Shown one piece after another: positions 36,701 through 64,000 of a DNA stretch of 64,000 bases. Source of the DNA: an uncultured Gammaproteobacteria bacterium. GTDB lineage: Bacteria; Pseudomonadota; Gammaproteobacteria; JACCXJ01. The notes beneath the pieces were generated by a model that was given only the letters and a program-made list of their open reading frames with translations, did not search any database and was not told where the DNA came from. The number at the start of each line of letters is the position of its first letter. The stretch's first letter is position 1. The stretch is from NCBI GenBank assembly GCA_963764725.1, contig CAVXTM010000015.1, positions 313,209 to 377,208 of the forward strand. The letters run 5' to 3'. A program made the position numbers and the translations under genes.

Positions 36701-37185
36701 CCAAAGCGTCGCGGCGCCGCATACGCGGATTTCAGCGCGCGTGTGCGGGTGATGATGTCCTTCGCCATGCCTTCGATACCGAGCCGCTGGCCGTCCTCGG
36801 GCAGGTAGATCTTCTCCACCCCGTAGGCCTCGAGGGTCTTCGCTTCCTCGTCCGTGATGGTTCCTCCGCCTCCGGCAAAAACCCGGATCTCACCGGCGCC
36901 CGCGGCTTTCAAGGAATCCAGCAAATAACGGAAAAACTCCAGGTGCCCGCCCTGATAAGAGCTGACCGCGATCCCGTCGGCATCCTCTTGGAGCGCTGTG
37001 CGCACGATATCCTCGACGCCCCGGTTGTGGCCCAAATGCACCACTTCCGCGCCTTGGGCTTGCAACAAACGCCGGATGATGTTAATCGCCGCGTCATGGC
37101 CATCGAAAATGGAAGTCGCGGTGACGAAGCGCAGCGGCGCTTGGGCCACGAGCTTTGGGGAGGAGGGTTGAGTCATGCTTGCCAT
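33769..37185 (-). CDS. icmF: Fused isobutyryl-CoA mutase/GTPase chaperone (B12-dependent)
   Basis: FDGHDAAINI B12-binding domain; MeaB-like GTPase (GSGGSGKS, ETAGTGQ); mutase domain (RMFAGEG, GTVQADILKEDQAQN, HTNAYDEA); 1138 aa. Confidence 0.95.
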   Translation of the reverse strand: MASMTQPSSPKLVAQAPLRFVTATSIFDGHDAAINIIRRLLQAQGAEVVHLGHNRGVEDIVRTALQEDADGIAVSSYQGGHLEFFRYLLDSLKAAGAGEIRVFAGGGGTITDEEAKTLEAYGVEKIYLPEDGQRLGIEGMAKDIITRTRALKSAYAAPRRFGREDIRAVGRRLSLIETGLPFIPARRKRKDRNVPVVGVTGSGGSGKSTVIDELLGDCLRSFPTRAFAVIALDPTRQKSGGALLGDRLRMNFAADPRVFMRSMATRRRHLATNEILGDCVDFLKSLDFDLIIIETAGTGQGGTELVGLADVSLYVMTSDYGGPTQLEKIQMLDYADLIALNKCDARESQDALRDVRKQWRRNRNAFTLPDAQVPVYPTVASRVRDPGVAHLFYALCEQLDRLRSRDREPWTPLPGDRAAARVAQPLIPARRSRYLGEIAEQGRAETAAIEQQVRAASQAQGYYLSLQALADPQLPPPLKPYSGDLSQSNGDDALVRLRRCYQEALATLSPEAIAALEEWPQVRAQAEQERYAYSVRGAEITGDNATESLSHLRIPRLALPHYQDWGSLLRFLLKENLPGRYPYTAGVYPYRRGTEEPTRMFAGEGGPERTNRRFHYLAAGQTATRLSTAFDPIVLYGEDPDTRPDIYGRLGMSGVSVATLDDVKKLYSGFDLCDPATSVSMTINGPAPILLACFMNAAIDQQVEKYLRESGRWQEVEPRIAAVYQDLPRPQYRGLLPQGHDGLGLGLLGVSGGQWLDPETYARIRADTLARVRGTVQADILKEDQAQNECIFAIEFALRMMGDIQEFFIAHRVRNYYSVSVSGYHIAEAGANPLTQLAFTLANGFTLVEYYLGRGMAIDQFAPSLSFFFSNGMDPEYAVLGRVARRIWARALREIYRAGPRSQMLKYHVQTSGRSLHAREIEFNDIRTSLQALYAIYDNCNSLHTNAYDEAVTTPTEESARRALAIQLIINRELGLNYNENPLQGSFIIEELSDRLEEAVYEEFSRLSQRGGVLGAMETLYQRMKIQEESLYYEGRKQSGDLAIIGVNTFVREDAERRAMAGGLVRASEEEKRAQIEAVAGFKRQHADKAPQALKRLQEVIDAGGNTFAELMDTVRDCSLGQITQALYEVGGRYRRRM

Positions 37186-37303
37186 CGCACCTACCTGTCG
37201 GGAACTCTCTGTTTGCGGAGCGGTTTGGTTTGCAGACTAAGACCCCTCATCCCCGGCGGCGTTCCGGCAGAGGGTGACCACGCTCCCCGCCGCGACGGTC
37301 CGA

Positions 37304-37462
37304 TCACGCGCCGGCGGCGGCGCGCTCGGCGCGTTTGCGTTGGTGTTCGTTGAGGAGCTTCTTGCGCAGCCGGATGGCCTTGGGGGTGATCTCGACCAGC
37401 TCATCGTCGTCGATGAATTCGAGCGCCTGCTCCAGATCCAAGCGGATCGGCGGGGTCAGGAG
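37304..37462 (-). pseudogene. typA: Isolated 3' end of typA/bipA (left copy of the island-flanking duplication)
   Basis: [35 protein letters not shown]..; near-identical to 63691-63851. Confidence 0.88.
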
Positions 37463-38351: not shown

Positions 38352-39500
38352 TCACATTTTTCTGCATATTTCCTGATAGGATGCTGCTAGCGCCGTTGGC
38401 GTTCTGGAACTTCGGGCTTTCCGGAGGTTGAGCACCTGGCGATCGTAGTGGGACTTGTCAACTCTCTGCACTATGTGTTCGATAATTTCTTTTAACTCCA
38501 TCTCATTGTGGAACAAATAGCCGATATCGCCATGGGTCCTAAACATATTTTCGAATAGTGAAAGCCTTCTTGTAATCAAAGGTTTTCCCAAGCGAGGGCA
38601 TCTAGCATCGTTCCGCTTGGAGATAGCTCGTAATGTTCCGCATCATGAGGGAATATGATGAAGTGAAGTTTCTTTAGACCTTGGATAAAGTCTACTCTAC
38701 TTAAGCAAGTTACCCCCGGCTTGGTTGCCAGAGCGTCTATCTCCATCGTTGGATTTCTTTCCCCTGCGAATCTGCCAATAGCATGGAATTCCACTTGATC
38801 CTGATACTTTGCCTTCATTTCCTGTGCAAGCTTTACGAATAGTGAAAACCCCTTTGATTCATTTGCGCGTCCCAAAAATCCGAAGCGTATAGGCGTACTA
38901 AGATCATTAGTATTTAAACCTTCTTCATTGGGAGGAAGCGGGTGATCTAACGCTTCAACCTTTCCTGACAAGCAGGGAAGATTTTTCAAAAGGACATCGC
39001 GGATGCATTCTTCCAGCGCCAGGTATTGAATGTTGCGATTCCCAAATAAAGTTAAGGCGGTCTTCATATCCCGAAACCGGTAAGGGCGTTTATAACGCCT
39101 GCCGACTATCCCACTGAGACCATCATGCAGTATCACTTGCACACTTATGCCTCGAAATTGGCAGAGTTTCACCAGTGCCATTACTGTAGATGGACATACG
39201 GAGGTGAAAATGAAATGGCCCCGCGAACCTCGAGGGAAAGTTCGTAGCAGGTTTTCGATAATTTTCACTTCGCAAAAAGGCGCCCAAAGTAGCCAAGGCT
39301 TCCGTCTAATGGGAGAATGTCTACCCATGAGATCGACTCGCTACGGCAAGCAGCTGCTTTTTGAGCTCCACAAGGCGCGGGCACGAAGGAGCGACTCATT
39401 CCTCTGGGAAAGCGTTCGTGCATCCAAGGACAGTCATTGGAACATGTCCACAATCACTGAATCCTAGCTCAACAGAATCAAGCAGCCCTCTGCTCGGTAG
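38352..39500 (-). pseudogene. GT-B (GT4-like) glycosyltransferase, frameshifted, AT-rich
   Basis: FGFLGRANESKGF, YELSPSGTMLDAL, KPLI..; split over at least three frames. Confidence 0.7.
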
Positions 39501-39589
39501 TAGGCGTGTGAGGGTCGAATGTGAACTGAGTGTACGGTATCTCGGTAGCCTGATCATCCTGGAGGACAAGCGCGGCTCCTGGTGGCAGC

Positions 39590-39950
39590 CCGAGCCCGAG
39601 TCGTGCTGCAACTCAAAATCCCCTACCACGACGGTACCACGCATGTCGTGATGGAAAGCCAGGCCCAGGGAGTGGCCCTGCTTGGCGCCCTGAGGACGGA
39701 ACACCTGGAATTCAGATGCAGCGCCAAGCTCCGTCCCCAGATCATCCCGAGCGCCCCGGTCAACGCCACTGACAGCCCCCTTCGGTCCGCACTCGCGCGC
39801 AACCCTACAACGCCCCGAAACGCCGCGCCTCCGGCTCATGAATAGCTCGACAATTTCCCCGTCCTGGACCGACCACCCGCGTCATTGACAGCGGACAGGT
39901 TCAGCAGTAGTTTCCCTTAGCGGTAAAAGATGCGTTTGAAAACCCTACTC
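39590..39950 (+). mobile_element. IS91/ISCR-family remnant (transposase 3' pieces and oriIS-like end)
   Basis: VVLQLK.PYHDGTTHVVME-HLEF, AKLRPQIIP; end motif GCGTTTGAAAACCCTAC. Confidence 0.7.
39657..39701 (+). repeat. 45-bp hairpin insertion element, copy 1
   Basis: Reverse complement matches 51157-51201 at 40/45 positions; adds 15 codons between ME and HLEF. Confidence 0.85.
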
Positions 39951-40197
39951 GCGGACGGACCCAAAATCGACAAGGTACTTGTTACACCTCTTACTAAATC
40001 ACCGGACGAATCGCAAGACTCTACGGGTTGTTAAAACCGGAAGTGATACCTAGCCCCGACCCAGGCTCTGGATAAGATCGGCTCCCGGCGGGTGTTGAGC
40101 TTGTCATGGAGAGGGAATTCGGGTGAGCGCGGTACTGTGTCCATCGCGGCTTCGGATGATGATCCAGATCAGATTTGACTGCGAGGGGCACGTTATC

Positions 40198-41454
40198 ATG
40201 TTTCCAAAAAAGCGCGCGACAACCGTCGTGATCATAGTGCGTTGCGCAGCCCTTGGAGTTTTCCTGTTGCTCGAGCCGACCGCAACAGCCGGGGAACACG
40301 CGGAGGGCGGTTCGCCATCGGGGCTGGCGGGGCTGGTGGACAAGGCTTTGGCGCGCAGCCCAAACCTTCAGGTGCTCGAGGCGCGGCTGAACGAAGCGCA
40401 CGCCCTCCAGCGCCAGGCCGAAAGCTTCTGGGCCGGTGATCTGGCCATCGGTCTTCGGCACAATAACGATGGTTTCATGGATCAAGAGGGCTTGCAGGAA
40501 TGGGAATGGGGGATAGAACTTCCTCTTTGGCTGCCTGGCCAGAAACGCGCCCGCGAGCGCGTTGCAGAACAGGCGGGGCAGGCTGCCGAGAACGCCTCTG
40601 TGGCCTTGAAGCTCATTGTTGCAGGGCTCGTGCGCGAGGCCGTTTGGGAGATGGCCCTGGGTGAAAACCAGGCACAGATCGCTGAGCGTGAATGGAACAC
40701 TGCGGCGCGTCTGGAACAAGACGTTACAAAGCGTGTACGGTACGGCGAACTAGCGCGCACGGATCTGATTTTGGCGAGCCAAGAGACTCTACTGAAGCAG
40801 GCCAGTCATCGGAGATCGGTCAGTGATTACCAAAATGCCTTGCATCGATTTCAGGTCCTTACCGGTGCATCGGCAATGCCCGCACGATATTCCGAGGAAC
40901 CGAAGTCCCTTCGTGCCATCACAGACGGGCATCCCTTGCTGGCCGAAGCGCAGGCGGGGGTGGCACGTGCGATGGCCGAGCGCGAACAGGCCCAACGCGA
41001 GCGCTGGGCGAGTCCCACTCTCACGCTCGGAACTCGTCATGAGCGAGCGGAGGATGGTGAGGACTACGCCGACAGCCTCACCGCAATCTTGCGCGTCCCC
41101 TTGGGCCTCGCCTCTCAAACGACGCCGGCAATCGCTCGAGCCGAGCTTGCACTTGCCGAGGCCGAGAGTGGGCGCGACCGCCTGCGCAGGCGCCTGCAGC
41201 TCGCTTTGGACCGGACCCTGCGCGAGGTCGATACCACACGCGCCGAGCTAGCGCTCGCCGAGATGCAGGACAAGCTGGCCAAGGAAAACCTCAAACTCAC
41301 ACAGCGAGCATTTGCCCTGGGGGAGGCGGATCTCGTAAGCCTCATCCGGGTACAAAGTCAGGCCTTCGCCGCGCAGCGCAGCTTTCGTCAAATGCGATTT
41401 GAGCTAGGCCGCGCAGTCGCGCGCTTGAATCAGGCCCTGGGGAACCTTCCGTGA
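40198..41454 (+). CDS. czcC: TolC/CzcC-family outer-membrane efflux protein
   Basis: Signal-like N-terminus, ALARSPNL, IELPLW, Ala/Gln-rich helices; first gene of the RND operon. Confidence 0.85.
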   Translation: MFPKKRATTVVIIVRCAALGVFLLLEPTATAGEHAEGGSPSGLAGLVDKALARSPNLQVLEARLNEAHALQRQAESFWAGDLAIGLRHNNDGFMDQEGLQEWEWGIELPLWLPGQKRARERVAEQAGQAAENASVALKLIVAGLVREAVWEMALGENQAQIAEREWNTAARLEQDVTKRVRYGELARTDLILASQETLLKQASHRRSVSDYQNALHRFQVLTGASAMPARYSEEPKSLRAITDGHPLLAEAQAGVARAMAEREQAQRERWASPTLTLGTRHERAEDGEDYADSLTAILRVPLGLASQTTPAIARAELALAEAESGRDRLRRRLQLALDRTLREVDTTRAELALAEMQDKLAKENLKLTQRAFALGEADLVSLIRVQSQAFAAQRSFRQMRFELGRAVARLNQALGNLP

Positions 41455-42548
41455 CCACCTCCCGGCTGATTGGCGCCGCACTGGTTTTGATGACGTGTCC
41501 AGCCCTCCAGGCCGGCTCACCAATCGTGATGAGCCAGCAACAACAGCAGGATGCCGGGGTCGCGGTTGCAGTCCCGGAGCCGGCCGAGCACGCATACGGC
41601 GAGCCTTTGCCGGCTAAGGTTGTGGTGCCGAATGCGCAATTGCGTGTGGTGAGCGCCATGCAAGGCGGTCTTGTCGAAATCTTGTTGGTTGCGGTCGGCG
41701 AAAAGGTTGTGAAGGGCCAGGTCCTGGCTCGGATCCAGAGCCCCGAGCTGATCAGGCTGCAAGGGAATTTCCTGCAGGCTCGGATCCAGTTGCACTTGGC
41801 GAGGAGCAATCTCAGTCGCGATACCCAGCTCCATCGCGAAGGTATTATTCCCGAGCGGCGCCTTCAAGAGACGCGTGGGACTTATCAGGAGCTCAATACG
41901 GTTCAAGAACTGCGACGCCAAAGCCTGTTGCTCGCGGGCATGGACTCAAGCGAGATTGCGAACCTCGAGTCCGGTCGGCAGCTAATGAGCACCCTTGTGC
42001 TCCGTTCGCCTCTCGACGGAGTCGTGCTGGAGCAGTTAGCCGTTGCCGGCCAGCGCGTGGAAGCGGCGACCCCCTTGTATCGGGTCGCCGATCTCGATCC
42101 TCTGTGGATCGAGATTCACACCCCGATTGAGAAGGTAGTCCGCGTCGCCGTGGGCGATCCGGTGCTTATCCCTGCGCACGACGTCAGAGGTCGGGTCACT
42201 ACCATCGGGCGCGATGTCCACGAGGCGGACCAAGGGGTGTTGGTCCGCGCTGAGGTGACCGAGGGGACGGAGCACCTACACCCCGGCGAATTCATTCAGG
42301 TACAGATTGCCAATGCCGAGGGCGCCGACGAGCGGTACCGTGTCGCGCGCACGGCGGTGATCCATGAAGGGCGCAAGGCCTTCGTGTTTATGAAGACCGA
42401 GGATGGATTTAGCCCCCACGAGGTCGATATCGCGGGCGACGAAGGCGAGCACCTCGTCATCGTAGCCCGCCTGCCACGCGCGACCGCTATTGCCATCAGC
42501 GGGACGGCTGTGCTGAAGGCGGCACTGAGTGGCGAGGGCGGCGACTGA
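41451..42548 (+). CDS. czcB: RND periplasmic adaptor (CzcB-like)
   Basis: GEKVVKGQVLARIQSPEL, LRSPLDGVV, ADLDPLWIE. Confidence 0.88.
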   Translation: MTTSRLIGAALVLMTCPALQAGSPIVMSQQQQQDAGVAVAVPEPAEHAYGEPLPAKVVVPNAQLRVVSAMQGGLVEILLVAVGEKVVKGQVLARIQSPELIRLQGNFLQARIQLHLARSNLSRDTQLHREGIIPERRLQETRGTYQELNTVQELRRQSLLLAGMDSSEIANLESGRQLMSTLVLRSPLDGVVLEQLAVAGQRVEAATPLYRVADLDPLWIEIHTPIEKVVRVAVGDPVLIPAHDVRGRVTTIGRDVHEADQGVLVRAEVTEGTEHLHPGEFIQVQIANAEGADERYRVARTAVIHEGRKAFVFMKTEDGFSPHEVDIAGDEGEHLVIVARLPRATAIAISGTAVLKAALSGEGGD

Positions 42549-45500
42549 TGCTCGCAAGAACCGTTCGCTTCGCCTTAACGCAACCGCTTTTGATGCTACT
42601 TTGCACCGCATTGGTCGCCGGAAGCGGTTGGGTGTCCTTTCGCGACTTGCCCATCGACGCGTTCCCGGATGTCTCCACCACTCAAGTCAAGATAATCGTA
42701 AAGGCACCCGGTATGACGCCCGAAGAGATAGAGAGCCGGATCACTGCCCCCGTCGAAGTCGAAATGCTCGGCATCCCCAAGCAAACCATGTTGCGCTCAA
42801 TCTCGAAGTACGCGCTCGCCGACATCACCGTGGACTTTCGAGAGGACACTGACATTTTTTGGGCACGTCAGCAGGTCGCCGAGCGTCTCAATGCCATTTG
42901 GGACGAGTTGCCCCCGGAGGTCTCGGGAGGCATTGCCCCCATGACCACGCCTCTCGGCGAGATGTTCATGTTCACCGTCGAGGGCAGCGAACTTTCGCTT
43001 ACGGAGCGTCGCACCCTGCTCGATTGGGTTATTCGCCCCGCGCTACGCACCGTCCCGGGCGTCGCTGATGTCAATGCCCTTGGCGGCTTCGTGCGTTCCT
43101 TCGAGGTCATTCCCGATCCCGCCCGCATGCTTGCTCAAGGCGTGAACCTTGATACTCTGCAAGAGGCGGTCACGACCAACAATCGCAATGACGGTGCGGG
43201 AAGGCTCATCGACGGCGAGGAGGTGTTGTTGGTCCGGAGCGAAGGCAGCATTCAGTCGCTTGGGGATCTCGGCTCGATCGTAGTCAAGCATCATGCGGTC
43301 GAACCGGTGCGCTTGCGCGATGTCGCCGAGGTGCGTCTAGGTGCCATCACGCGCTACGGCGCAGTGAGCCGCGATGGCCGTGCCGAGGCCGTCGAAGGAC
43401 TGGTGTTGGGCTTGCGCGGTGCAAATGCGGGCGAATTAGTGCGCGGCGTGCGCGCGAAGCTTGAGGAGCTTAAACCGGTGTTACCCGCCGGGGTGCATAT
43501 TCGGACCTTTTATGATCGCGGTGATCTGGTGGACCGCGCGGTCGCCACCGTCTCCAAGGCGTTGGCAGAGGCGATCGTGCTCGTCATCCTATTGTTAATC
43601 TTGTTCCTCGGCGACTTGCGCGCCTCGCTGACCGTAGCGCTCACGCTCCCCCTGGCAGCGCTCAGCACCTTTATTCTGATGCGCCAGTTTGACATGTCTG
43701 CAAACCTCATGAGCCTTGGAGGGCTTGCCATCGCCATTGGCATGTTGGTCGATGCCGCCGTCGTCGTCGTCGAAAACGTCGTCTCGAGGCTTGCGCGGTC
43801 CGAGGACAGCGGCCGGCGGCCCCGACTCCATCGGATCTATGCTGCGGTACGCGAGGTCGCAACGCCGGTCGCAACCGGGATCCTCATCATTATGGTCGTG
43901 TTCGTGCCGCTCCTCACGTTGGAAGGGTTAGAAGGGAAGCTCTTTGCGCCCGTAGCGATCACGATCATGTTCGCCCTTGGTGCTTCTCTGGCGCTCTCAC
44001 TCACGGTGATCCCGGTGCTCGCCTCTTACCTGCTCGGTGAGGCGCGGCACACGGAACCCTGGCTCGTGAGGCTCTTGCGTGCTGCTTACGCGCCCCTCTT
44101 GCGCTGGTCGCTCGGGCACTTCCGCTTGGTATTCTCCGGTGCCCTGTTGTCTCTGGTCGTCGCGGCCGGGCTTTACGCCAACCTCGGCAAAACGTTCATG
44201 CCGATCATGGATGAGGGCAACATCATCGTCCAGCTCGAGAAGCTTCCCTCAATCAGCCTCGACGAATCGGTGCAACTCGACTTGCGTGTGCAACGTGCGT
44301 TGCTCGATCGGATCCCCGAGATCACCGAGGCCGTGGCCCGCACGGGCTCGGACGAGATCGGGCTCGATCCCATGGGACTCAATCAAACCGACACCTTCAT
44401 GGTTCTGAAACCGAGGGAGGAATGGCGGGATGGCGACAAGAGCACTCTCATCGAGGCTATGCGACAGGTGCTGGAAGGTTTTCCCGGCCTCGTCTACGCC
44501 TTTACCCAACCGATCGAGATGCGCGTATCGGAGATGCTGACCGGCGTACGCGGGGATGTGGCCATCAAGCTCTTCGGCCCCGATTTGGCCGTGCTCAATG
44601 ATAAGAGCGAGACGATCGTCGGACTCTTGAGAACGATCCGCGGGGCGGAGGATGTCTACACCGCCAAGAACGAGGGCGTGCAATATCTCAAGGTTGTCAT
44701 CGACCGTCTCGCGGTGGGTCGCATGGGCCTCTCGGTCGAAACAATCCAGGAAACCCTGCGCGCCTTGATCGAGGGCCGGCGCATCGGCACCGTCTACGAG
44801 GGGCCGCGCCGTACGCCGCTCGTTATCCGTAGCGGCACGGAGCTAAGGGCCTCGCCCGCCGCGTTCACAAATCTGTTGCTCACCCTCCCCGAGGGCCGCA
44901 ACGTGCCGCTCGCCATGATGGCGAGGCTCGAGCGTGTGGATGGGCCGGTGGTCATTGCGCGCGAGCATGGGAGCCGCATGGCGGTCGTGATCGCCAATGT
45001 CGCCGGACGTGATCTCGTCGGCTTTGTCGACGAAGCCAAGCGAAAGATCAAAGAGGGTCTCACGCTTCCGACGGGATATTATCTCCAATGGGGCGGCCAG
45101 TTCGAGAACCAGCAGCGCGCTGCGGCTAGGCTAGCGGTCGTGGTGCCGGTTGCCCTTGGGCTTATTTTCTTCCTCTTGTTCACGAGCTTTCGGTCCGTGG
45201 GTCAAGCGCTTCTGGTGCTATCCAACATCCCTTTTGCCCTAGTGGGCGGCGTGGTGGCCCTCTGGCTTTTCGGCGAGTATTTGTCCGTTCCGGCCTCCGT
45301 GGGATTCATCGCGCTTCTTGGGATCGCGGTCTTGAACGGTGTGGTGCTGGTGAGCTATTTCAACCAACTGCGTGCGCTCGGTTTGGATCTTAGCCAGCTC
45401 GTCATCCAGGGTGCCGAGCGTCGGCTGAGGCCGGTCTTGATGACGGCGAGCATCGCAGCCTGTGGGCTCCTGCCCATGCTCTTTGCCAGGGGGCCCGGAT

Positions 45501-45622
45501 CGGAGATCCAGCGTCCGCTTGCCATTGTAGTCATAGGTGGATTGGTGACCTCAACTCTCCTCACGCTATTGCTCCTGCCGAGCCTCTACCAGAGGTTCGG
45601 CGCATTTTGGCAGCGCCCATGA
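42548..45622 (+). CDS. czcA: CusA/CzcA heavy-metal efflux RND permease
   Basis: LPIDAFPDVS, ANLMSLGGLAIAIGMLVDAAVVVVEN, RLRPVLMTA; 1024 aa. Confidence 0.95.
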   Translation: MLARTVRFALTQPLLMLLCTALVAGSGWVSFRDLPIDAFPDVSTTQVKIIVKAPGMTPEEIESRITAPVEVEMLGIPKQTMLRSISKYALADITVDFREDTDIFWARQQVAERLNAIWDELPPEVSGGIAPMTTPLGEMFMFTVEGSELSLTERRTLLDWVIRPALRTVPGVADVNALGGFVRSFEVIPDPARMLAQGVNLDTLQEAVTTNNRNDGAGRLIDGEEVLLVRSEGSIQSLGDLGSIVVKHHAVEPVRLRDVAEVRLGAITRYGAVSRDGRAEAVEGLVLGLRGANAGELVRGVRAKLEELKPVLPAGVHIRTFYDRGDLVDRAVATVSKALAEAIVLVILLLILFLGDLRASLTVALTLPLAALSTFILMRQFDMSANLMSLGGLAIAIGMLVDAAVVVVENVVSRLARSEDSGRRPRLHRIYAAVREVATPVATGILIIMVVFVPLLTLEGLEGKLFAPVAITIMFALGASLALSLTVIPVLASYLLGEARHTEPWLVRLLRAAYAPLLRWSLGHFRLVFSGALLSLVVAAGLYANLGKTFMPIMDEGNIIVQLEKLPSISLDESVQLDLRVQRALLDRIPEITEAVARTGSDEIGLDPMGLNQTDTFMVLKPREEWRDGDKSTLIEAMRQVLEGFPGLVYAFTQPIEMRVSEMLTGVRGDVAIKLFGPDLAVLNDKSETIVGLLRTIRGAEDVYTAKNEGVQYLKVVIDRLAVGRMGLSVETIQETLRALIEGRRIGTVYEGPRRTPLVIRSGTELRASPAAFTNLLLTLPEGRNVPLAMMARLERVDGPVVIAREHGSRMAVVIANVAGRDLVGFVDEAKRKIKEGLTLPTGYYLQWGGQFENQQRAAARLAVVVPVALGLIFFLLFTSFRSVGQALLVLSNIPFALVGGVVALWLFGEYLSVPASVGFIALLGIAVLNGVVLVSYFNQLRALGLDLSQLVIQGAERRLRPVLMTASIAACGLLPMLFARGPGSEIQRPLAIVVIGGLVTSTLLTLLLLPSLYQRFGAFWQRP

Positions 45623-45918
45623 CCGACTGTGTCCTTGTATTGGTCGTGCCTCCGAACGTGGAGGGTCCTTTGGTCGATTGGTTGCTCGAACGGGTCCCCG
45701 CCTTCAGTAGCTTTCCGATCGCGGGCCACAGCTCGGCGCACCAGGGCCTAAGCCTCAGCGAACAGGTCGAAGGTCGCCAAGAGCAGTTGCTCTTTTGGAT
45801 TCATCTGCCGATTGCCGAGGCCGAACAGGTTACCAAAGACATCTCTGCGCAATTCGATCATGTCAAGCTCCATTATTGGATCCTACCAGTTGCGGCAGCG
45901 GGTCGCACTGGCGAGTGA
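45619..45918 (+). CDS. DUF3240-like (PII-like) protein accompanying czcA
   Basis: [27 protein letters not shown]; ATGA overlap with czcA. Confidence 0.78.
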
Positions 45919-45989
45919 CACGGCGGTGAATGACTGGACACGTGCACCTTATGTTGCTCAAAGACGAATTAAAGCAAGTTCCAAGGCCC

Positions 45990-46245
45990 TCGTGGAGACA
46001 ATCCCGGATCACCTGGCCATGGACCTCGAGGGTCTCATTGGCCTCCTCGAGGGTATCGAGGGGGGTCGGGTGCGGGTCCTCTCCCGCGATCTCACCGGCC
46101 CCTCGCCGCTCGCCCAGGAGGTTCTGAGCGCCCGGCCCTACGCCTTCTTCGATGATGCGCCGCTCGAGGAGCGACGCACCCAGGCGGTCGTAGCCCGCCG
46201 CTGGTTGGACCCAAGCTCAGCTTCAGAGCTTGCACGGCTCGATCC
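45990..46245 (+). pseudogene. Internal fragment of an Lhr-type helicase
   Basis: [37 protein letters not shown]. Confidence 0.75.
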
Positions 46246-46355
46246 CCATCCCGTGTTGCTCACGCCGGTCTTGCAAATCCTCCACCGGGTCATTTCCGGA
46301 TTTCTCATCAAGCAGGCGGGGCTCAAGCGTAACCAAGCCGATACCGGTGCCGTTA
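46246..46355 (+). mobile_element. IS91-family transposase internal fragment
   Basis: [34 protein letters not shown]. Confidence 0.6.
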
Positions 46356-46622
46356 CGCGTTATGTCGCACTAGGCATCGCTGTTCCAGTATCAGAATCCA
46401 TTACGCCTGTCACTGGATATGCTTTAACGGCGACGCGGCCAGAAAACCCTTAAGCGCGGCAAGCCGAGCCTGCGTGGTTTCCCACATCCAATTGGGAATA
46501 TTTATCACGTCGGTGTCGCCACTGGATATCTTGAATACCAGGCAATGCACTGCGGGAGAAATTTCAATAGATGGCATAATATGCTCACCCGGCTCGTACT
46601 ATTCCACCCTTGGGTTGTAAGT

Positions 46623-47879
46623 ATGTCTGGTATCCTCATTAGCTATCGGCGAGAAGACAGCGCCGGCCACGCTGGGCGGCTCTACGACCGGCTGGTGCGC
46701 GACTTCCACGAAGTCAAAGTCTTCATGGACGTGGAACAGATCGCGTCCGGCGACGACTTTGCCCGGGCTATCGAAGACATCGTGCAAACCTGCGACGTGC
46801 TGCTCGTAGTTATCGGGAAGCGTTGGCTGACGGCGGCGGACCAGTATGGACAGCGCCGGCTCGACAAGAGCGACGATTGGGTCCGGATGGAAGTCGGTGC
46901 TGCATTGACCCGTAATATCCGCGTAATTCCCTTGCTCATCGATGACGCGGCACTCCCAACGGCAGAGGCGCTCCCTGGAGACCTTGTGCGCCTGACCTCT
47001 CTTCAGGCCCATCCGATCAATCATCTCACCTTCCATCAAGACGTGGACCGACTCGTTGACCGGATCAAGACGGCCATTGGCGCGCGTAAGGCGACGCTGG
47101 CCAACAGCCATGCGCCGGGCACCAAACGCGTACATCCCCAGGATGGTCTCGAGTACGTGTGGATACCGCCGGGCCGGTTCCTGATGGGGCGCGTGCCCGG
47201 TGACAATGTCGAAGCCGAACGCTACGTCGTCGAGAAGCCCCAGCACCCGGTTAGGCTGACGCGGGGCTTCTGGCTGACGCGCGGACCCGTGACGGTCCGG
47301 GCCTACCGGTATTTCGTCACGAAGCGCGTACTGAAAATGCCCCGCGCGCCCGCCAACAACCCCAACTGGGCATACGACGACCATCCTGTCGTAAATGTCA
47401 CCTGGATGCAGGCGCGGGAATATGGTGCCTGGGTGGGCGGCCGATTGCCGACCGAAGCGCAGTGGGAGTATGCCAGCCGGGGTGGGATCGACAATACCAT
47501 CTACCCCTGGGGTAATGAGGTAAAGCCCGATATGGCGAATTACGTCGGTAATCCCAAGTGGGGACGACACAGCACTTCGCCGGTCGGATCATTCCCGGAA
47601 AATGGCTTTGGCCTCTATGACATGGTTGGCAATGTCTGGGAGTGGGTGTCGGACTGGTACGACGACGAAGCCTATAACACCCGTCCGCCACACGAGCCGA
47701 CCGTTGACCCGGAGATATTTGTCAACAAGCACGATCGGCGCGTGGTCCGCGGCGGATCGTGGGATTCGATCGCTGAAGAGATCCGCCTGTCGGTGCGGGG
47801 TTACCAGACGCCCGCCGCCGGCTTCCGCGACTTCGGCTTTCGCTGTCTGGTTGACGAAATACCGGAAGGCCCCGTCTAG
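46623..47879 (+). CDS. TIR domain + FGE-sulfatase (SUMF1/CLec-fold) domain protein
   Basis: ILISYRREDS..VFMDV..DWVRMEV..VIPLL; then F.MG, RLPTEAQWEYA, NGFGLYDMVGNVWEW, RGGSW, GFRC. Confidence 0.9.
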   Translation: MSGILISYRREDSAGHAGRLYDRLVRDFHEVKVFMDVEQIASGDDFARAIEDIVQTCDVLLVVIGKRWLTAADQYGQRRLDKSDDWVRMEVGAALTRNIRVIPLLIDDAALPTAEALPGDLVRLTSLQAHPINHLTFHQDVDRLVDRIKTAIGARKATLANSHAPGTKRVHPQDGLEYVWIPPGRFLMGRVPGDNVEAERYVVEKPQHPVRLTRGFWLTRGPVTVRAYRYFVTKRVLKMPRAPANNPNWAYDDHPVVNVTWMQAREYGAWVGGRLPTEAQWEYASRGGIDNTIYPWGNEVKPDMANYVGNPKWGRHSTSPVGSFPENGFGLYDMVGNVWEWVSDWYDDEAYNTRPPHEPTVDPEIFVNKHDRRVVRGGSWDSIAEEIRLSVRGYQTPAAGFRDFGFRCLVDEIPEGPV

Positions 47880-48952
47880 CGGCTGAGGTCCTCGAATAAG
47901 CGGCAGTAGCGACGCCCCATCATCTGATCCGTGAAGTGACGCTCGTAACGCCGTCGAGCGCCACGGCACAGGGCGACAAGCTCATCGGAGCTTGCCGCGT
48001 CCCAGGCATACATGGCTGCGCGAAACGCCGCGTAGCTCGCGTCGGCGCAAAAAAACGCGTGATCGCCCAGCACCTCGACCAGTCCGTCGATACGGGTACA
48101 AACCACCGGAATGCCGCGTGCCGCTGCTTCCAGAGCGACGAGGCCGAAAGGCTCATAAATCGATGGAACGGCAAGGATGTCTATGGCGTCAAAAAATGCC
48201 TCCAGCCGGGGGCCGACGCACCAGCCCAGGAATGTGACTCTCGCGTCCAGCCGGTGCGTGTTCAACAGATCGCGCGCATACGGGCTGAACCCGCGCCCCG
48301 CAATAAGCACACGGCGGTCCTCGAATCCGTGCTCGTTGAGCATCATTTGCACATACTCAGGATGCTTTCGCGGCACGAGGCGTCCGCAATAGCCGAGGAC
48401 GCGCTTACCGCGCGGAATGCGACACCGTGGTGGCCGCCGCACACCGTTATGGATGACATGCACGTTGGGGTTCAAGCGCTGATAGCCTAGCGCCAAATAG
48501 CTCCGTCGTTCGGCCTCGGAGAGCACCACGGCATAGGTGCTGCTGGCGATCAGCCGCTCCTGCCAGCCAACGACTCCACCGAGCTTCACATCGTTCGACG
48601 TCTCTTCGAGCGCCAGCAGTGAGTGCAGCGTGCATACCGCTTTGCGGCTTGCCACGTAGGTCGCGAGGGCGGAATTCTCCTGATATGAATGAATGTGTGC
48701 GACCGGCGCGTTGAACCGTAGGAGATCCGCGACCTGGCCGACGGCTACGTCGGGAAAGCGTTGGAGGATTTCGTCGATCTGCGCGGGAAGATAACCATGG
48801 TCGGTAAGAAACCAGAGGGGTCGAACACCCTCGCTTTTAAGCCCCGACATCAGGTTCTCGATGACGGTACCGACGCCCCCCATCCGGTTAAGGGGCATCT
48901 CGTTCGTGATCTCGATTACGTCAAACGCTTGCCGCGCAGTGTTGGTAATCAC
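47876..48952 (-). CDS. Glycosyltransferase family 4
   Basis: GGVGTV, IHNGV, GRLVPRK, PSIYEPFGLVALEA. Confidence 0.9.
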   Translation of the reverse strand: MITNTARQAFDVIEITNEMPLNRMGGVGTVIENLMSGLKSEGVRPLWFLTDHGYLPAQIDEILQRFPDVAVGQVADLLRFNAPVAHIHSYQENSALATYVASRKAVCTLHSLLALEETSNDVKLGGVVGWQERLIASSTYAVVLSEAERRSYLALGYQRLNPNVHVIHNGVRRPPRCRIPRGKRVLGYCGRLVPRKHPEYVQMMLNEHGFEDRRVLIAGRGFSPYARDLLNTHRLDARVTFLGWCVGPRLEAFFDAIDILAVPSIYEPFGLVALEAAARGIPVVCTRIDGLVEVLGDHAFFCADASYAAFRAAMYAWDAASSDELVALCRGARRRYERHFTDQMMGRRYCRLFEDLSR

Positions 48953-49413
48953 GGGGCAATAGGGTTATCTGATCGGAGCAGTGGATATCGACATACCCGA
49001 GAATCGCCAGAGTCCGACATTCGATCGGCCAGTTCTCGGGCTCCTCCCAGCACCCCTCGCCACGGCATCGGGCGAGAAACACCGCGGCCAAGCACTCGCG
49101 CAAGTCGGGGTTGGAATCCTCGCTCCAGAAGTTTTGCACGCCGAGCACCCGGTAGAGATCAGGTGCGAGGCTCGCTAGATCTATTCGAAGCTCACGAGCC
49201 TGGACGAACCGCTGCTCGAGGCGGTGCACTTGGAAGGGAGGAATCACCAACTGGGTTGCTTCGAGCCGCAGCGCCACTAACGGCGAAGAGGTAGCCCGTG
49301 ATCCTACTTTCCGAGGTACGATTCGTGACGCCGGAGGACGGGTAGGCACCATAGAGGCCGGTGGTTTCGTCGGACTTGTCATACTTTACCATTACCAAGA
49401 GCGGTTCGTTCAT
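48921..49413 (-). CDS. Hypothetical protein, one apparent frameshift near 49290
   Basis: MNEPLLVMVKYDKSD..GYLF joins ..YRVLGVQNFW..WEEPENWPIECRTL in another frame; overlaps the GT4 start. Confidence 0.5.
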
Positions 49414-49965
49414 AGTGCATTACTCTATCCATGCGGTCGCAAGAGTGAAGTCATGGCCTGGCGAAAGAGAATGTTTCGCACCTTTACATCAGTTCGGAAA
49501 CGGGCATGAAATGGGATCGTAGCCGACTTTATTGACTATCGCACGGACGCCGGCCACGACATTCGTCTCCCCGCGCCCGCGAACGCGAGCCGATAAACTC
49601 TTAAGAGTCTCATGATGGTAACCAGACGGAGTGCCGAGCGCCAACATATCGTAACTGCCTGTTCATCCGCGATTGACGTCGAGGTGATGCGGCGAGGATT
49701 CGCTAGTAGGTCTATAGAGAAAATGTCCCTGCGCTTAAGCGCGCTTCGCAATGCGTCACGAGGCTCTTTCACATAGGTATGGTCAGCCCCGAAGATTCGT
49801 CGTATCGACCACGGGCGAGGTAATCGGAAAGCTCCCGTTGCACATAGGTGGCAGCCTGCCGCCATCTACATCAGAAGCTATGGAGCATTCGCAGTAATTC
49901 GATTTTGCGGTGCGCCGCCGCTTGCCCAGCAGCCGGGTGAGCCACGCCTGAGCCGGGGTATAGGA

Positions 49966-50075
49966 ACCGCGAGGTACAGCTCATATTCGTGATGCTCGGG
50001 ATTGCCGCAATATTCCGTGCCCCGATCGGTCAACACCCGCAGGAGCGCGATGTCGTGTTCAGCAGGCAGCAACAG
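49966..50075 (-). mobile_element. IS481-family transposase internal fragment
   Basis: LLRVLTDRGTEYCGNPEHHEYELYLAV. Confidence 0.8.
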
Positions 50076-50127
50076 CATTGCCTTTCTCGCACGAGAGGAT
50101 AGCCCAGGATCAGAACCAATTATTATG

Positions 50128-50346
50128 TTACGTTTTATCTGAGAGCTTACGCAGGATTTCGCTCTTATCGATATTCTTCGCTGCAGCGACGGCGCGCAAC
50201 ACTGCGTTTAACGTTCCTAGTCGCAACGAATCGTGTGCGGGTATCGCAATACGGTGATGGCGCGGGACGTCAGTTACGAGGATGACATGACTACCGACTT
50301 GGTGTACCAGCCGATAACCAAAATATTTTTCGAGTATTTTACCTAA
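50128..50346 (-). pseudogene. hicA: HicA toxin 3' part (5' part at 52028-52065), split by an insertion
   Basis: LGKILEKYFGYRLVHQVGSHVIL..IAIPAHDSLRLGTLNAVL; joins MKLPRN.SG across the TTAG overlap. Confidence 0.82.
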
Positions 50347-52027
50347 CCCGGCATAGCCGGAACCAAGGTGTTGAATGTACTATTCTGGCGGATGGGCAAT
50401 AAGAACTGGAGATGGGTCGTCGCCATGAACTCCTTTGTTGAACGCCATCAAGCGAAGATCGCCGCGGTGCTTTGTTGCTTTGACCGCATCGTGATCACTG
50501 GCACGCTTCCGGAGATCGCCCATGCCGAGGCTATGGCCCGGTATTTGGGTGTCCGGGGTATGCGTCTGTTTGACTATCCCCGCTGGGCAGAACCGCTGCG
50601 CGAGGCGCTTCGGACCCATGCCGAGCGGCTGGCCGCTGAGGCTTCGTTGGAAATTGAATTCATCCGTCATTACAAGGCGTTTCGTAAAGAAGAACGGATC
50701 AAAGCGATTTTGGCTTTGCGCGGTGAGCACCCGGGGCTGGTGCATATCTTCTCGGCGATGGAGGCCTGTCCTTCGTATCGCCCCTGGCATGACAAGCTTC
50801 AGCATACGACCCGTTTGAAGTCTACCCCGGGCAAGTGTTTGCATTATTACTTCTATTTCATCGATGAGATCTTCGGGCTCTGTTATGTCCGAGTACCCAC
50901 CTGGGCACCGTTTCGCCTGCAGGTCTATTTGAACGGCCATCACTGGTTAGCCCAACGACTGACCAAGACAGGGATCGCCTTTGAGCGCGCCGATAATGCC
51001 TTCTTGTCCATCGGCGATCCCCAACAGGCTCAGGCGCTTGCCGATAGCCTCGATCCCAAAGGCTTGCATCGGCGTTTGGACCGATGGGCGAAAAGCTTCT
51101 GTCCTATCTTGGGTCAGTTTCGCGCTGGTTATCACTGGAGCTTCATGCAGGTGGAGTTGCATCCTCGGCGCGCCAAGCAGGGCCACTCCCTGGCCCTGGC
51201 TTTCTCGACCGATGTCATCTTCCACCGCCAAGCCGATTTCCAACCCCTCTATCAAGCCATCGTGCGTACCGCCGTGCATGCCCTCAAGGCAGAACACGTC
51301 GCCACCTTCTTGGGACGCAAACTCACCTCGGCCTTCAGCGGGGAGGCCGGTAACGATTTTCACACCCGCATTCAGGGTACACGCATCCGCCATCATATGG
51401 GACCAGCAAGCCTCAAGCTCTACGATAAATTCAGTCTCATGGCTCGGGTGGAATGCACCGCCAACGATGTCTCCTTCTTCAAACACCACCGTTGGGTGGA
51501 ACAACGCAATGGGCGCAAGCAATTCAAACTCGCACCCCTGCGAAAAAACATCTATAGCCTCCCCGATCTGCGAGAGCTGATGCATGCTGCCAATGAACGC
51601 TATCTCAGCTTCATGGCCAGCATCGATAACCCCAATGCAGCTCTGCACGCCATCGACAAAATGGCCAAACCTGTACGAGAGAAAGACCGCTCCTATCGGG
51701 GCTTCAATCTCTTCCTCGGTGAAGATCATAGCCTTTATTATACCCTCGCCCGCGGGGAGTGGAACATCAGCGGCTTTCGCGCCTCCGATCTCCGAGCCCA
51801 TCTCCGGGATCTCTCCACCGGCCGTGCCTCCTACTGGTTGAAACGCTTGCGCACCCATGGCCTCATCAAAAAGATTGGACATCGCTACAAGTACTACCTC
51901 ACGACATTCGGTCGTCGTGTGCTCAGCAGCGCACTCGCTATCCGAGAGTATGTGGTCATGCCTGCTCTCAATACCGCTCATGCATGACACTCTTTGCTTT
52001 TTTGCACAAGATTTCATGGATAAGGGA
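50347..52027 (+). mobile_element. Insertion element without TIRs, flanked by CTAA, encoding a ~520-aa putative transposase (50425..51987) with a C-terminal winged HTH
   Basis: Interrupts hicA; CTAA at 50343-50346 and 52028-52031; left-end hairpin CCGGC-ATA-GCCGG; motifs HYYFYFID, LKLYDK..RVECT, LKRLRTHGLIKK..YYLT..G. Confidence 0.85.
51157..51201 (-). repeat. 45-bp hairpin insertion element, copy 2 (inverted relative to copy 1)
   Basis: Adds LHPRRAKQGHSLALA between QVE and FSTD; stem CAGGGCCA-CTCCC-TGGCCCTG. Confidence 0.85.
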
Positions 52028-63527: not shown

Positions 63528-63567
63528 TGGGACCGACCGGTCTCGAACCGGTGACCCCCTGCATGTC
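63528..63567 (-). tRNA. tRNA 3' half only (likely Val-GAC); att-site remnant, not a functional gene
   Basis: GAC-AT-GCAGG-GGGTC-ACCGG-TTCGAGA-CCGGT-CGGTCCC-A: anticodon, variable loop, perfect T-arm, acceptor 3' strand. Confidence 0.72.
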
Positions 63568-63687
63568 CTCGACGCCCCGGTTGTGGCCCAGATCCACCAC
63601 TTCCGCGCCTTGGGCTTGCAACAAACGCAGGATGATGCTGATCGCGGCGTAATGGCCATTGAAAATGGAGGTCGCGGTGACGAAGCG
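63566..63687 (-). pseudogene. icmF: Diverged duplicate of an icmF 5' segment
   Basis: Aligns to about 37010-37131 with substitutions (DGHD to NGHY); lacks the start codon and intergenic region. Confidence 0.85.
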
Positions 63688-63690
63688 GGA

Positions 63691-64000
63691 TCACCCGCCG
63701 GCAGCGGCGCGCTCGGCGCGCTTGCGTTGGTGTTCGTCGAGGAGCTTTTTGCGCAGGCGGATGGCCTTGGGGGTGATCTCGACCAGTTCGTCGTCGTCGA
63801 TGAATTCGAGCGCCTGTTCCAGATCGAAGCGGATCGGAGGGGTCAGGAGAATGTTCTCGTCGGAGCCCGCGGACGAATATGGTCAATTGCTTCGCCTTCA
63901 TGGGGTTGACGATCAGATCATTGGCGCGCGAGTGGATGCCGATGATCATCCCCGTATAGACGTCTTCCCCTGGACCGATCAACAGCCGGCCGCGTTCCTG
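63691..64000 (-). CDS. typA: Translational GTPase TypA/BipA, 3' part (continues beyond the window; small indel near 63870)
   Basis: [67 protein letters not shown]. Confidence 0.9.

Follow-up and report, generated by a model that had tools for sequence, protein, structure and literature searches.

A 43-nt hairpin mini-element, probably mobile, inserted in transposase-like genes and other repeats of one gammaproteobacterial lineage

Two copies of a hairpin mini-element in the window

The DNA considered here is a 64,000-nt stretch of the genome of an uncultured gammaproteobacterium (assembly GCA_963764725.1, contig CAVXTM010000015.1, positions 313,209 to 377,208 of the forward strand), henceforth the window, which corresponds to G000:C15:313209-377208 in the coordinates used below for genomes (G), contigs (C) and individual loci (L). 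It contains two copies of a short hairpin-forming sequence, hereafter the mini-element, one of them inside an open reading frame (ORF) and the other inside the remnant of a transposase gene. An earlier note on this stretch had described a pair of 45-mers, inverted relative to each other and identical at 40 of 45 positions, and the pair is indeed present, with five mismatches between window 39657-39701 (+) and 51157-51201 (-). The features of immediate relevance are the following:

39582..39845 (+): host of copy 1, the remnant of an IS91/ISCR-like (Y2 HUH) transposase gene, a pseudogene
39657..39701 (+): copy 1 of the mini-element (nhmmer E 2.2e-13), with a 43-nt core at 39657-39699 followed by AA at 39700-39701 and preceded by the flank GGAA at 39653-39656
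39660..39680 (+): hairpin of copy 1, an 8-bp stem with one mismatch and a 5-nt loop
50339..52032 (+): host element of copy 2, 1.69 kb long and represented in the genome by 12 copies or fragments
50425..51987 (+): host ORF of copy 2, 520 amino acids (aa) here and 505 aa in homologues
51157..51201 (-): copy 2 of the mini-element (nhmmer E 2e-15), the core being the reverse complement of 51159-51201 and the AA that of 51157-51158
51178..51198 (-): hairpin of copy 2, a perfect 8-bp stem with a 5-nt loop

A repeat search of the window returned the 45-mer pair as its best inverted pair, with arms of 52 nt that are 88% complementary. Both 45-mers share a 23-nt core without a single difference, and this core, at up to three mismatches, occurs twice in the window versus not once in 100 dinucleotide-preserving shuffles. 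Copy 2 has the consensus sequence of the repeat family described below and lies in frame, as 15 codons, within the 505-aa-family ORF: it adds LHPRRAKQGHSLALA between QVE and FSTD of ORF 50425-51987, at a position where homologues show a clean 15-residue gap. Copy 1 is a slightly decayed member, with a C-C mismatch in its stem (39664/39676) and a GCGCCCTGAGGACGG variant of the tail; at position 39664, the contigs of all four public sequencing runs compared carry a G. The insert that it contributes, SQAQGVALLGALRTE, separates VVME from HLEF, and no insert is present in an intact paralogue from the same genome (C9:93500-95122), which has IVME-PLEF—the protein across this empty site being ...THIVME-PLEFMQRLAALVP... 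and the DNA ATGGAA^CCCCTGG.

The remaining structural details given in the earlier note were equally borne out. Both inserts measure 45 bp, AA (TT on the other strand) stands at both junctions, the stem arms of copy 2 are CAGGGCCA and TGGCCCTG with the single C-C mismatch confined to copy 1, and copy 2 is free of stop codons in all six frames; copy 1 has a TGA in one of the six. The description of both hosts as transposase genes stood only in part. The gene around copy 1 is IS91/ISCR-like, but it is a decayed pseudogene whose reading frames are broken downstream: its sole family match is to NCBIfam ISCR_clade_Ia at an E value of 0.0011, far under the cut-off, and it matches the intact paralogue on C9 in both nucleotide and protein sequence (...TPYRDGTTHIVMEPLEFMQRLAALVP...). 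The 50425 ORF, for its part, matched no known transposase family.

Copy number and distribution

The earlier note had recommended a search for further copies, and the pair proved to belong to a family: blastn-short combined with an nhmmer profile (E<1e-4) recovered 33 copies in the 4.2-Mb genome G000, and the mini-element is present in all 15 genomes of the taxonomic family f1, which comprises three genera across which the consensus is nearly the same. A 24-nt degenerate pattern of the tail, with at most one mismatch, matched in each of these 15 genomes (2-42 hits each) and in none of 26 genomes from 26 other families of the same class, and the reversed pattern, used as a control, gave no hits anywhere. 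Among the matches listed for a public collection, more than 108 exact stretches of the pattern lay nearly all in metagenome-assembled genomes (MAGs) titled Gammaproteobacteria or Chromatiales bacterium, including Chromatiales bacterium USCg_Taylor, MGR_bin175 and MAGs from caves and soil; three contigs among these listed matches belonged to bins of other phyla. Viral contigs contained no exact hit to the pattern, a plasmid collection searched with a long copy yielded no match, and a comparison of window 39400-39950 and of a long copy with Rfam gave nothing near any gathering score. Contigs from four public sequencing runs carried the mini-element in many contexts, with at most 0.14 of the sampled words of window 39300-40000 present in any run. 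The mini-element is restricted to one lineage, within which it is inherited vertically.

Nine of the genomes used here are unpublished (G001, G002, G005, G007, G008, G009, G010, G012 and G014), and they contribute to the tally of 15 family genomes, to the tally of Y2 transposase genes given below and to a context census covering 3-8-kb loci of relatives, in which seven loci (L002, L003, L004, L006, L008, L011 and L012) are theirs. They also lie behind the empty sites of G007 and G009 in genes for REP-associated tyrosine transposases (RAYTs; REP, repetitive extragenic palindromic sequence), the intact RAYT genes at L143 and L157, and the IS110 junctions of G002, G005 and G008. Each conclusion that draws on them has at least one public example in G003, G004, G006, G011, G013, the named MAG records or G000.

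Two arrangements in G000 are recorded here as observations in their own right. At C12:197127-197189, a full copy comes immediately after a partial one in head-to-tail arrangement (…GGATGG-AA-AGCCAGG…), as expected for a tandem insertion or a circle junction. At C5:107767-107900, a tRNA-Arg(TCG) gene has its 3' end about 80 bp away from a left half of the mini-element; the tail of the mini-element, read on the opposite strand, resembles the acceptor end of tRNA-Arg with its CCA, a short and gapped match that serves as a lead only.

Filled and empty sites

Five families of host sequence contain both filled and empty copies. For the 505-aa element, nine of the 12 copies or fragments in the genome are filled (99-99.7% identical) and three are empty (93-96%), and in the empty ones the flanks abut, sharing TT (...GGAG TT CTCG...). 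At the protein level, a first alignment showed a clean 15-residue gap between QVE and F(A/S)TD in 10 of 10 homologues; in the extended set, none of 120 homologues carries any residue in the 15 insert columns, which disposes of the possibility that proteins of this kind normally contain the extra residues. The second family, an IS91-like element designated F, is filled on C9 and on C10 (two copies within a local duplication) and empty on C7, where it is 99.5% identical to the filled form, and on C15 (90%). The third is the IS91/ISCR-like gene of the window, filled at copy 1 and empty in the C9 paralogue; moreover, a contig from sequencing run X4 follows this IS91-like gene up to position 39653 and continues without the mini-element.

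RAYT genes supply the fourth family. At the site GGGTGAA^CGTGG (K-G-E^R-G), four of 10 aligned copies are filled and six are empty. The filled ones are G000 C15, C10 and C1, which hold short forms, and G006, which holds a long form; the empty ones are G000 C9, G003, G004, G007 and a pair of copies in G009. The tree mixes filled with empty copies: the flanks of the filled C15 copy are 98% identical to those of the empty G004 copy, and the filled C10 copy is 93% identical to an empty copy of G009. Judged from these alignments, such a pattern would need at least three independent insertions at one site and in one orientation, or precise losses. As a separate observation, the empty site of G004 also lacks eight bases adjoining it, which could be the result of an imprecise excision. 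Finally, in a REPIN-like palindromic repeat, type D, the insert may occupy one or the other of two symmetric arms, at equivalent positions, and the arm opposite is then empty. The family also nests in itself, as at L066, where a short copy occupies the hairpin loop of a long one.

Empty sites recommended as a check in the earlier note are thus available within the same genome—three of the 12 505-aa element copies, the IS91-like copies on C7 and C15, and the RAYT copy on C9—and its reading of a mobile mini-element is upheld, given that the repeat is multi-copy, that homologous proteins lack the insert and that the 45-mer recurs across independent assemblies. Taken together, these comparisons make it probable that the mini-element is a genuine non-autonomous mobile DNA element. 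The alternative that the earlier note had also entertained, a fixed footprint left by excision, is less likely. Relative to host genes, copies stand in either orientation.

Anatomy of the mini-element

An alignment of 60 different short copies yielded a consensus in which the flank GAA is followed by AGCCAGGGCCAGGGAnTGGCCCTGCTTGGCGCGCCGAGGATGC and then by AA and C. On the strand of copy 1, the core starts at its 5' end with AGC and continues into a hairpin with an 8-bp stem and a 5-nt loop (CAGGGCCA ... TGGCCCTG); after the hairpin comes an almost invariant 19-nt 3' tail (CTTGGCGCGCCGAGGATGC), succeeded by A-A(G) and by a flank that is usually C-G. The same alignment revealed no terminal inverted repeats, the two ends being unrelated. 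Three length forms share these conserved ends and vary in their interiors: a short form with a 43-nt core, which adds 45 bp; a long form with an 82-nt core, which adds 84 bp and carries about 39 nt of extra small hairpins in the loop, in two variants; and a third form of 64 nt. Counted with the trailing AA, 45 of the 60 unique short copies measure 45 bp (44 bp in 12, 46 bp in two and 43 bp in one), and 13 of 16 unique long copies measure 84 bp, with 83, 85 and 86 bp found once each.

The stem shows signs of having been maintained. At stem pair 11-24, 34 distinct copies have GC and 21 have CG, a compensatory change, and at pair 12-23 the counts are CG 44, AU 5 and UA 1. Stem cells with a double change number 27 versus 9.7 +/- 2.1 in shuffles (none of 500 as high), and 92% of stem cells are paired versus 27-60% in slid controls, figures that are to be read with the fact that the copies fall into subfamilies. 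The compensatory changes support a conserved hairpin, short of proof.

Among the short copies, 50 of 60 have no stop codon in any of the six frames, and among the long copies, 15 of 16; the corresponding figures for random genomic sequence are 11.8% of 45-mers and 1.9% of 84-mers. Six-frame openness on its own would be weak evidence; combined with the fact that both standard lengths are multiples of three, it suggests, with moderate confidence, a family shaped for tolerance within ORFs. Since these lengths are multiples of three and nearly all copies are stop-free, a gene that receives one is lengthened by 15 or 28 codons and not truncated.

Target site

Both ends could be located in 143 copies (G000 plus the fetched loci), representing 82 different exact flanks and 37 loose context clusters. 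Across these 37 clusters, the left flank is G (33), A (33), and A (29) or G (7), and the right flank is A (35), A (28) or G (8), C (21), G (30) and C (20). The empty site rebuilt from them, GAA^CG(C), is consistent with every real empty site observed, and the exact cut point is ambiguous by two bases because of the two A's. The flanking dinucleotides are equal in 25 clusters (AA/AA in 22, AG/AG in three, the latter in the IS91-like F and IS5 contexts) and unequal in 12. On these data, a 2-bp target duplication would fit, and so would an element with ..AA as its own end that is inserted on the 3' side of ..GAA; the empty sites, too, are compatible with a 2-bp duplication or with none.

Host genes and the effect on reading frames

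As judged by Pfam matches and by reading of the contexts, the hosts are mostly mobile elements, many of them decaying, and a few sites are intergenic. Beyond the 505-aa gene, which receives the antisense strand of the mini-element in frame, the protein-coding hosts include the following. IS91-like F measures 2488 bp without the insert, encodes Y2_Tnp and Zn_Tnp_IS91 domains, and carries an in-frame insert between GFM(K/R) and VRYYG; IS91/ISCR-like genes contain at least four further sites in G000 and one more in relatives. In RAYT genes, the site lies just before the conserved WQRRFWEH block. An IS5-type transposase gene carries a 44-bp form that shifts the frame near the C-terminus, and a gene for a DnaE2-like polymerase is split into two frames here by an 83-bp form, with a 45-bp in-frame form in a relative. 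The proposal in the earlier note that the insertions do not break genes accordingly applies to some copies, which keep the frame, but not to the 44- and 83-bp variants, which shift it in the IS5 transposase, RAYT and DnaE2-like genes.

Small repeats are hosts as well. No host is commoner than type D, a palindromic, REPIN-like repeat some 190 bp long, which accounts for 56 of the 143 located copies. Two other small repeats also harbour the mini-element, one of which interrupts cas1. The loci concerned, together with the RAYT copies of G000, are listed here:

L132 (G000:C10:125400-126200) and L133 (C18:696700-697400): examples of type D repeats, with many more in public loci
L121 (G000:C1:1500-3300): cas1 locus (Pfam Cas_Cas1, E 1.2e-85)
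C15:171449-172199 (L140), C10:308-952, C1:466257-466831 and C9:112290-112984: RAYT copies in G000, diverged and all apparently frameshifted

At L121, the interruption of cas1 is due to a type B repeat of about 180 bp with short inverted ends, which itself carries the mini-element. Intact versions of the RAYT gene occur in relatives at L143, L147, L155 and L157. Another small repeat family, with inverted ends starting GTTGGTCGGCGCGC, was noticed at G000:C15:171436-171537 and in at least six other places, and one truncated copy of it sits just upstream of a RAYT pseudogene.

The host element of copy 2 deserves a description of its own. The 1.69-kb unit has no obvious inverted ends and no visible target duplication. 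Its protein is exactly 505 aa long in 103 of 120 homologues versus 520 aa here, and the family found no sequence match in Pfam, NCBIfam, PHROGs or the Protein Data Bank (PDB). Homologues run into the thousands; most are found on contigs about 1.7-2 kb long, and NCBI labels some of the proteins 'MarR family'. A structure model built from 11 sequences was too poor for use (predicted local distance difference test score, pLDDT, of 44.8), and one from 121 sequences reached a pLDDT of 72.8. With the latter, Foldseek returned no PDB match at E <= 0.001, the best being a TBP chain at E 0.039. In the predicted model, insert residues 245-259 largely coincide with a segment of pLDDT<50 (243-256) between two strands. 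We suggest that this protein may mark an undescribed insertion-sequence (IS) family.

Insertion did not put an end to the spread of these hosts. At least four filled copies of the 505-aa element have an open host ORF, as do the copies of IS91-like F, and both elements reached new loci after receiving the mini-element. As far as sequence comparison goes, this shows two different IS-like elements that kept multiplying with the insert in place, and either the enlarged proteins work or empty copies complement them.

Two neighbouring features of the window are noted for completeness. A pair of direct repeats at 37007-37462 and 63563-63849 (125 and 161 nt, 92-93% identical, about 26.4-26.6 kb apart) brackets the region with both mini-element copies, and a 444-aa ORF at 46545-47879 (+) encodes a TIR_2 domain (E 3.3e-14) and an FGE-sulfatase domain (E 5.2e-59).

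An IS110-family element inserted in the mini-element

The mini-element is itself a landing place. An IS110-family IS of 1154 bp (G000:C11:178521-179674, L126/L160), encoding DEDD_Tnp_IS110 and Transposase_20 domains, lies within one copy, between ...GCGCGCCGAG and GATGC..., and AG is shared at the junction (…CCGAG^GATGC…). Elements related to this IS (82-91% identical) are inserted at the identical point of further copies, in other contexts, and we found four further left and four further right junctions in G000, G002, G005, G006 and G008 (L162, L164-L166 and L168-L171; at least five genomes, three of them unpublished). The IS110-family IS hence appears to be aimed at the mini-element, and an IS110 element within the mini-element within a host IS makes three nested levels. 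A 7-nt complement of the target, found in the 5' untranslated region of the IS110 element next to the cut, was set aside as evidence, about 0.4 such matches being expected by chance (an estimate).

How the mini-element may move

If the mini-element is indeed mobile, we tentatively favour—while considering it somewhat doubtful—a route in which it would be mobilised in trans, most likely as single-stranded DNA, by an HUH-type enzyme, with a rolling-circle Y2 transposase of the IS91 family and a Y1 enzyme similar to those of IS200 or RAYT as candidates. Such an enzyme would cut after the flanking ..GAA and after the element's own 3' ..CAA/..GAA. This route is preferred because there are no terminal inverted repeats for a DDE transposase to pair and because the element is so small, a length of 43 nt being very short for a paired-end double-strand synapse or for a double-strand circle. 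Furthermore, the flanking GAA resembles the 3' CAA/GAA of the element, a likeness also seen where a single active site cuts an element's two ends, and most rebuilt empty sites contain GAAC. The IS91 family has no terminal inverted repeats, acts in trans, uses GAAC-type targets and throws off miniature derivatives (PMC3189936). The genome is rich in candidate genes, with 13 matches to Y2 genes and six to Y1 genes in G000, and IS91-like genes are strikingly often the landing place, at least five distinct insertion sites in G000 lying within them. The combination of a flanking GAA, an own end of CAA/GAA and a single hairpin, with Y1 genes in the genome, is a signature reminiscent of IS200/IS605-type elements, in which a Y1 enzyme guided by a subterminal hairpin cleaves single-stranded DNA 3' of a fixed short target. 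Across the family, Y2_Tnp genes matched in 14 of 15 genomes, the exception being G007 (89% complete), which has the fewest mini-element hits (two).

Several observations weigh against this route. The co-occurrence with Y2 genes involves kindred, non-independent genomes and is partly circular, as the elements sit in Y2 genes, and no enzyme has been tied to the mini-element. Neither of the two resident IS91-like elements whose ends were delimited (F and the ISCR-like element on C9) has ends like those of the mini-element, and the cut falls inside GAAC, whereas IS91 would insert beside the tetranucleotide. As regards Y1 enzymes, none of four intact RAYT loci of relatives has a mini-element within the 2-3.6 kb fetched, all RAYT copies in G000 look like pseudogenes, and conserved positions to the left as well as the right of the cut (G at -3, G at +4) are unusual for targeting of the IS200/IS605 type. 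The equal dinucleotides in 25 of 37 clusters would also fit a 2-bp target duplication by a double-strand mechanism, and at the IS91-like F site the filled copies have AG on both sides and both empty copies have AA, so that either model needs one extra substitution. Two structural arguments also lose force: the folding energy is ordinary for the composition (z of -0.5 to -0.8) and was dropped as evidence, and six-frame openness is not rare among composition-matched shuffles (19.8% for the short form and 11.1% for the long form).

RAYT as the mobiliser was a lead that we set aside, given intact loci without copies (L143, L147, L155 and L157) and RAYT genes that are apparently dead in G000. Two further Y2 genes, on C13 and C16, have no mini-element hit nearby. 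The earlier note had also called for a longer parent element with the same ends; none was found in G000 or in 159 fetched loci, where scans for orphan ends returned degraded or interrupted copies only, the whole genomes of the relatives lying outside these scans.

The observations can be assembled into a bolder picture, in which a 43-nt single-stranded 'nano-transposon' would parasitise transposons, be moved in trans by IS91-type Y2 or Y1 HUH enzymes, land preferentially in the single-stranded intermediates or genes of those elements, and owe its length and codon content to selection for survival of the host transposase, with three nested levels (IS110 in nano-element in IS). We regard this picture as quite unlikely.

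Among the alternatives to an HUH enzyme, a conventional DDE element is unlikely, yet it accounts for some of the data. Under this model, the mini-element would resemble a MITE (a miniature transposable element with inverted repeats), moved by a cut-and-paste transposase in trans with a 2-bp AR target duplication. The presence of the same dinucleotide on both sides in 25 of 37 clusters (AA/AA 22, AG/AG 3) would be accommodated, as would conservation on both sides of the cut, and the genome contains many DDE transposase families. The ends, however, are unrelated and form no terminal inverted repeats, the dinucleotides are unequal in the other 12 clusters, and no parent IS with the same ends was found in G000 or the 159 fetched loci; moreover, the MITEs that PMC2229807 tabulates are longer than 43 nt, at about 100-200 bp.

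We consider it very unlikely that the mini-element spread by recombination or repair without a dedicated transposase—through gene conversion or templated patching at GAA..CG microhomology—or that it is a functional site under selection. Such a model would draw on sites that hold the short or the long form depending on the genome (RAYT, DnaE2-like, repeat D and IS91 site ii) and on the near-identity of the consensus in three genera. Against spread by recombination stand the precise 45/84-bp differences at unrelated sequences, the single target motif, the self-nesting and the directional structure; against a functional site, the location of most copies in decaying mobile elements and the lack of any Rfam match.

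Highly improbable is the reading in which the mini-element is not independently mobile at all and instead represents an attachment or target site of IS110, spread by that element or left as its footprint. The IS110-family IS at ...GCGCGCCGAG^GATGC... in one copy, with relatives at the same point elsewhere, is what brings this reading into consideration, but the junctions at which the mini-element itself inserts (GAA^...^CG) bear no relation to the IS110 junction within it, 33 mini-element copies in G000 face one full IS110 and one fragment, and the empty sites lack the whole 45 bp rather than an IS. Excision of the IS110 type restores a target and is not known to create one elsewhere. The chance that an adapter, a chimeric assembly or a random similarity explains the 45-mer, a concern raised in the earlier note, is practically negligible, with no occurrence in 100 window shuffles, 15 genomes and MAGs of many independent projects carrying it in consistent contexts with conserved flanks, and contigs of four unrelated public runs containing it.

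Whatever its mode of movement, the mini-element bears on several broader questions. At 43 nt, and in an uncultured gammaproteobacterial family, it lowers the minimum size of mobile DNA for which insertions and empty sites are clearly documented, and it indicates that transposase genes can absorb a 15-codon insertion while their elements still multiply. It also offers material for asking which enzyme can move so small a unit and how an IS110 recombinase is aimed at a repeat. For annotation, such inserts create apparent lineage-specific indels and frameshifts in family proteins.

Comparison with known small mobile elements

Small repeats fused in frame to ORFs are a known phenomenon. In the portions of PMC2229807 used here, the MITEs so described comprise Rickettsia palindromic elements (RPEs), the 107-bp form of the Correia element and the enterobacterial repetitive intergenic consensus (ERIC), at about 100-200 bp; RPEs, of 105-146 bp, form Rickettsia-specific sequence families and occur in 19 ORFs, the product being still active in the case tested, and the 107-bp Correia form is found in three classes of transposase genes. 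Most members of this set have terminal inverted repeats, many with TA ends (Table 1 of PMC2229807). As far as these descriptions extend, the mini-element is like RPE, Correia and ERIC in being small and non-autonomous, with open frames and a frame-keeping length, and in lying in frame within protein genes; it is unlike them in its size (43/82 nt), its unrelated ends, its GAA^CG target and its confinement to a gammaproteobacterial family. The analogy with RPEs drawn in the earlier note stands: the in-frame behaviour is the same, the mini-element is shorter, and there is no GTAG signature.

In size, REPs come closer. They are G+C-rich hairpins of 20-40 bp, inherited vertically within a lineage and tied to RAYTs (PMC3733652, PMC3337134 and bioRxiv 2022.05.22.493013, in the parts used), and they are known IS targets (reference 42 in PMC3116915). 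The mini-element shares with REPs and REPINs, as these sources portray them, the size class, the G+C-rich hairpin, inheritance within a lineage and the role of an IS target, in this case for IS110. It differs from REPs in that neither end, on either strand, bears the GTAG/CGTC tag described in the part of PMC3733652 used (the consensus starts with AGCC and ends with GATGC), in being often intragenic (505-aa, IS91-like, IS5, RAYT and DnaE2-like genes) and in its low copy number of 2-42 hits per genome. It further differs from REPs and REPINs in that its copies are singlets rather than inverted doublets, and none of the four intact RAYT loci is flanked by it.

Miniature derivatives of the IS91 family form a third point of reference. 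According to the portions of PMC3189936 used, fragments of IS801 of 229, 360 and 679 nt lack inverted repeats, are moved in trans and carry the right end of the parent, and IS91-family elements use GAAC, GGAC, CAAG or CGAC as targets, reportedly inserting next to the tetranucleotide without duplication, with a G+C-rich stem-loop near one end. Measured against that account, the mini-element is similar in having no inverted repeats and in that most of its empty sites contain GAAC, and it is dissimilar in three respects: a length 5-15 times smaller, ends unlike those of both resident IS91-like elements, and a cut that falls within GAAC.

We found no description of the mini-element itself in the literature searched, where no search was made by sequence or for the repeats of this lineage. 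The probable nearest analogue, the cyanobacterial small dispersed repeats (SDRs) of Elhai et al. 2008 (Genome Res 18:1484), are reportedly very small mobile hairpin repeats nested in other repeats and in genes. They are reportedly comparable to the mini-element in size, and they differ from it in lineage and sequence; SDRs are cited in PMC3116915. In sum, the mini-element combines the behaviour of in-frame repeats with the size of REPs, having the defining features of neither, and belongs to a kind that is already known; it ranks among the smallest mobile DNAs described, comparable in this respect to REPs and SDRs.

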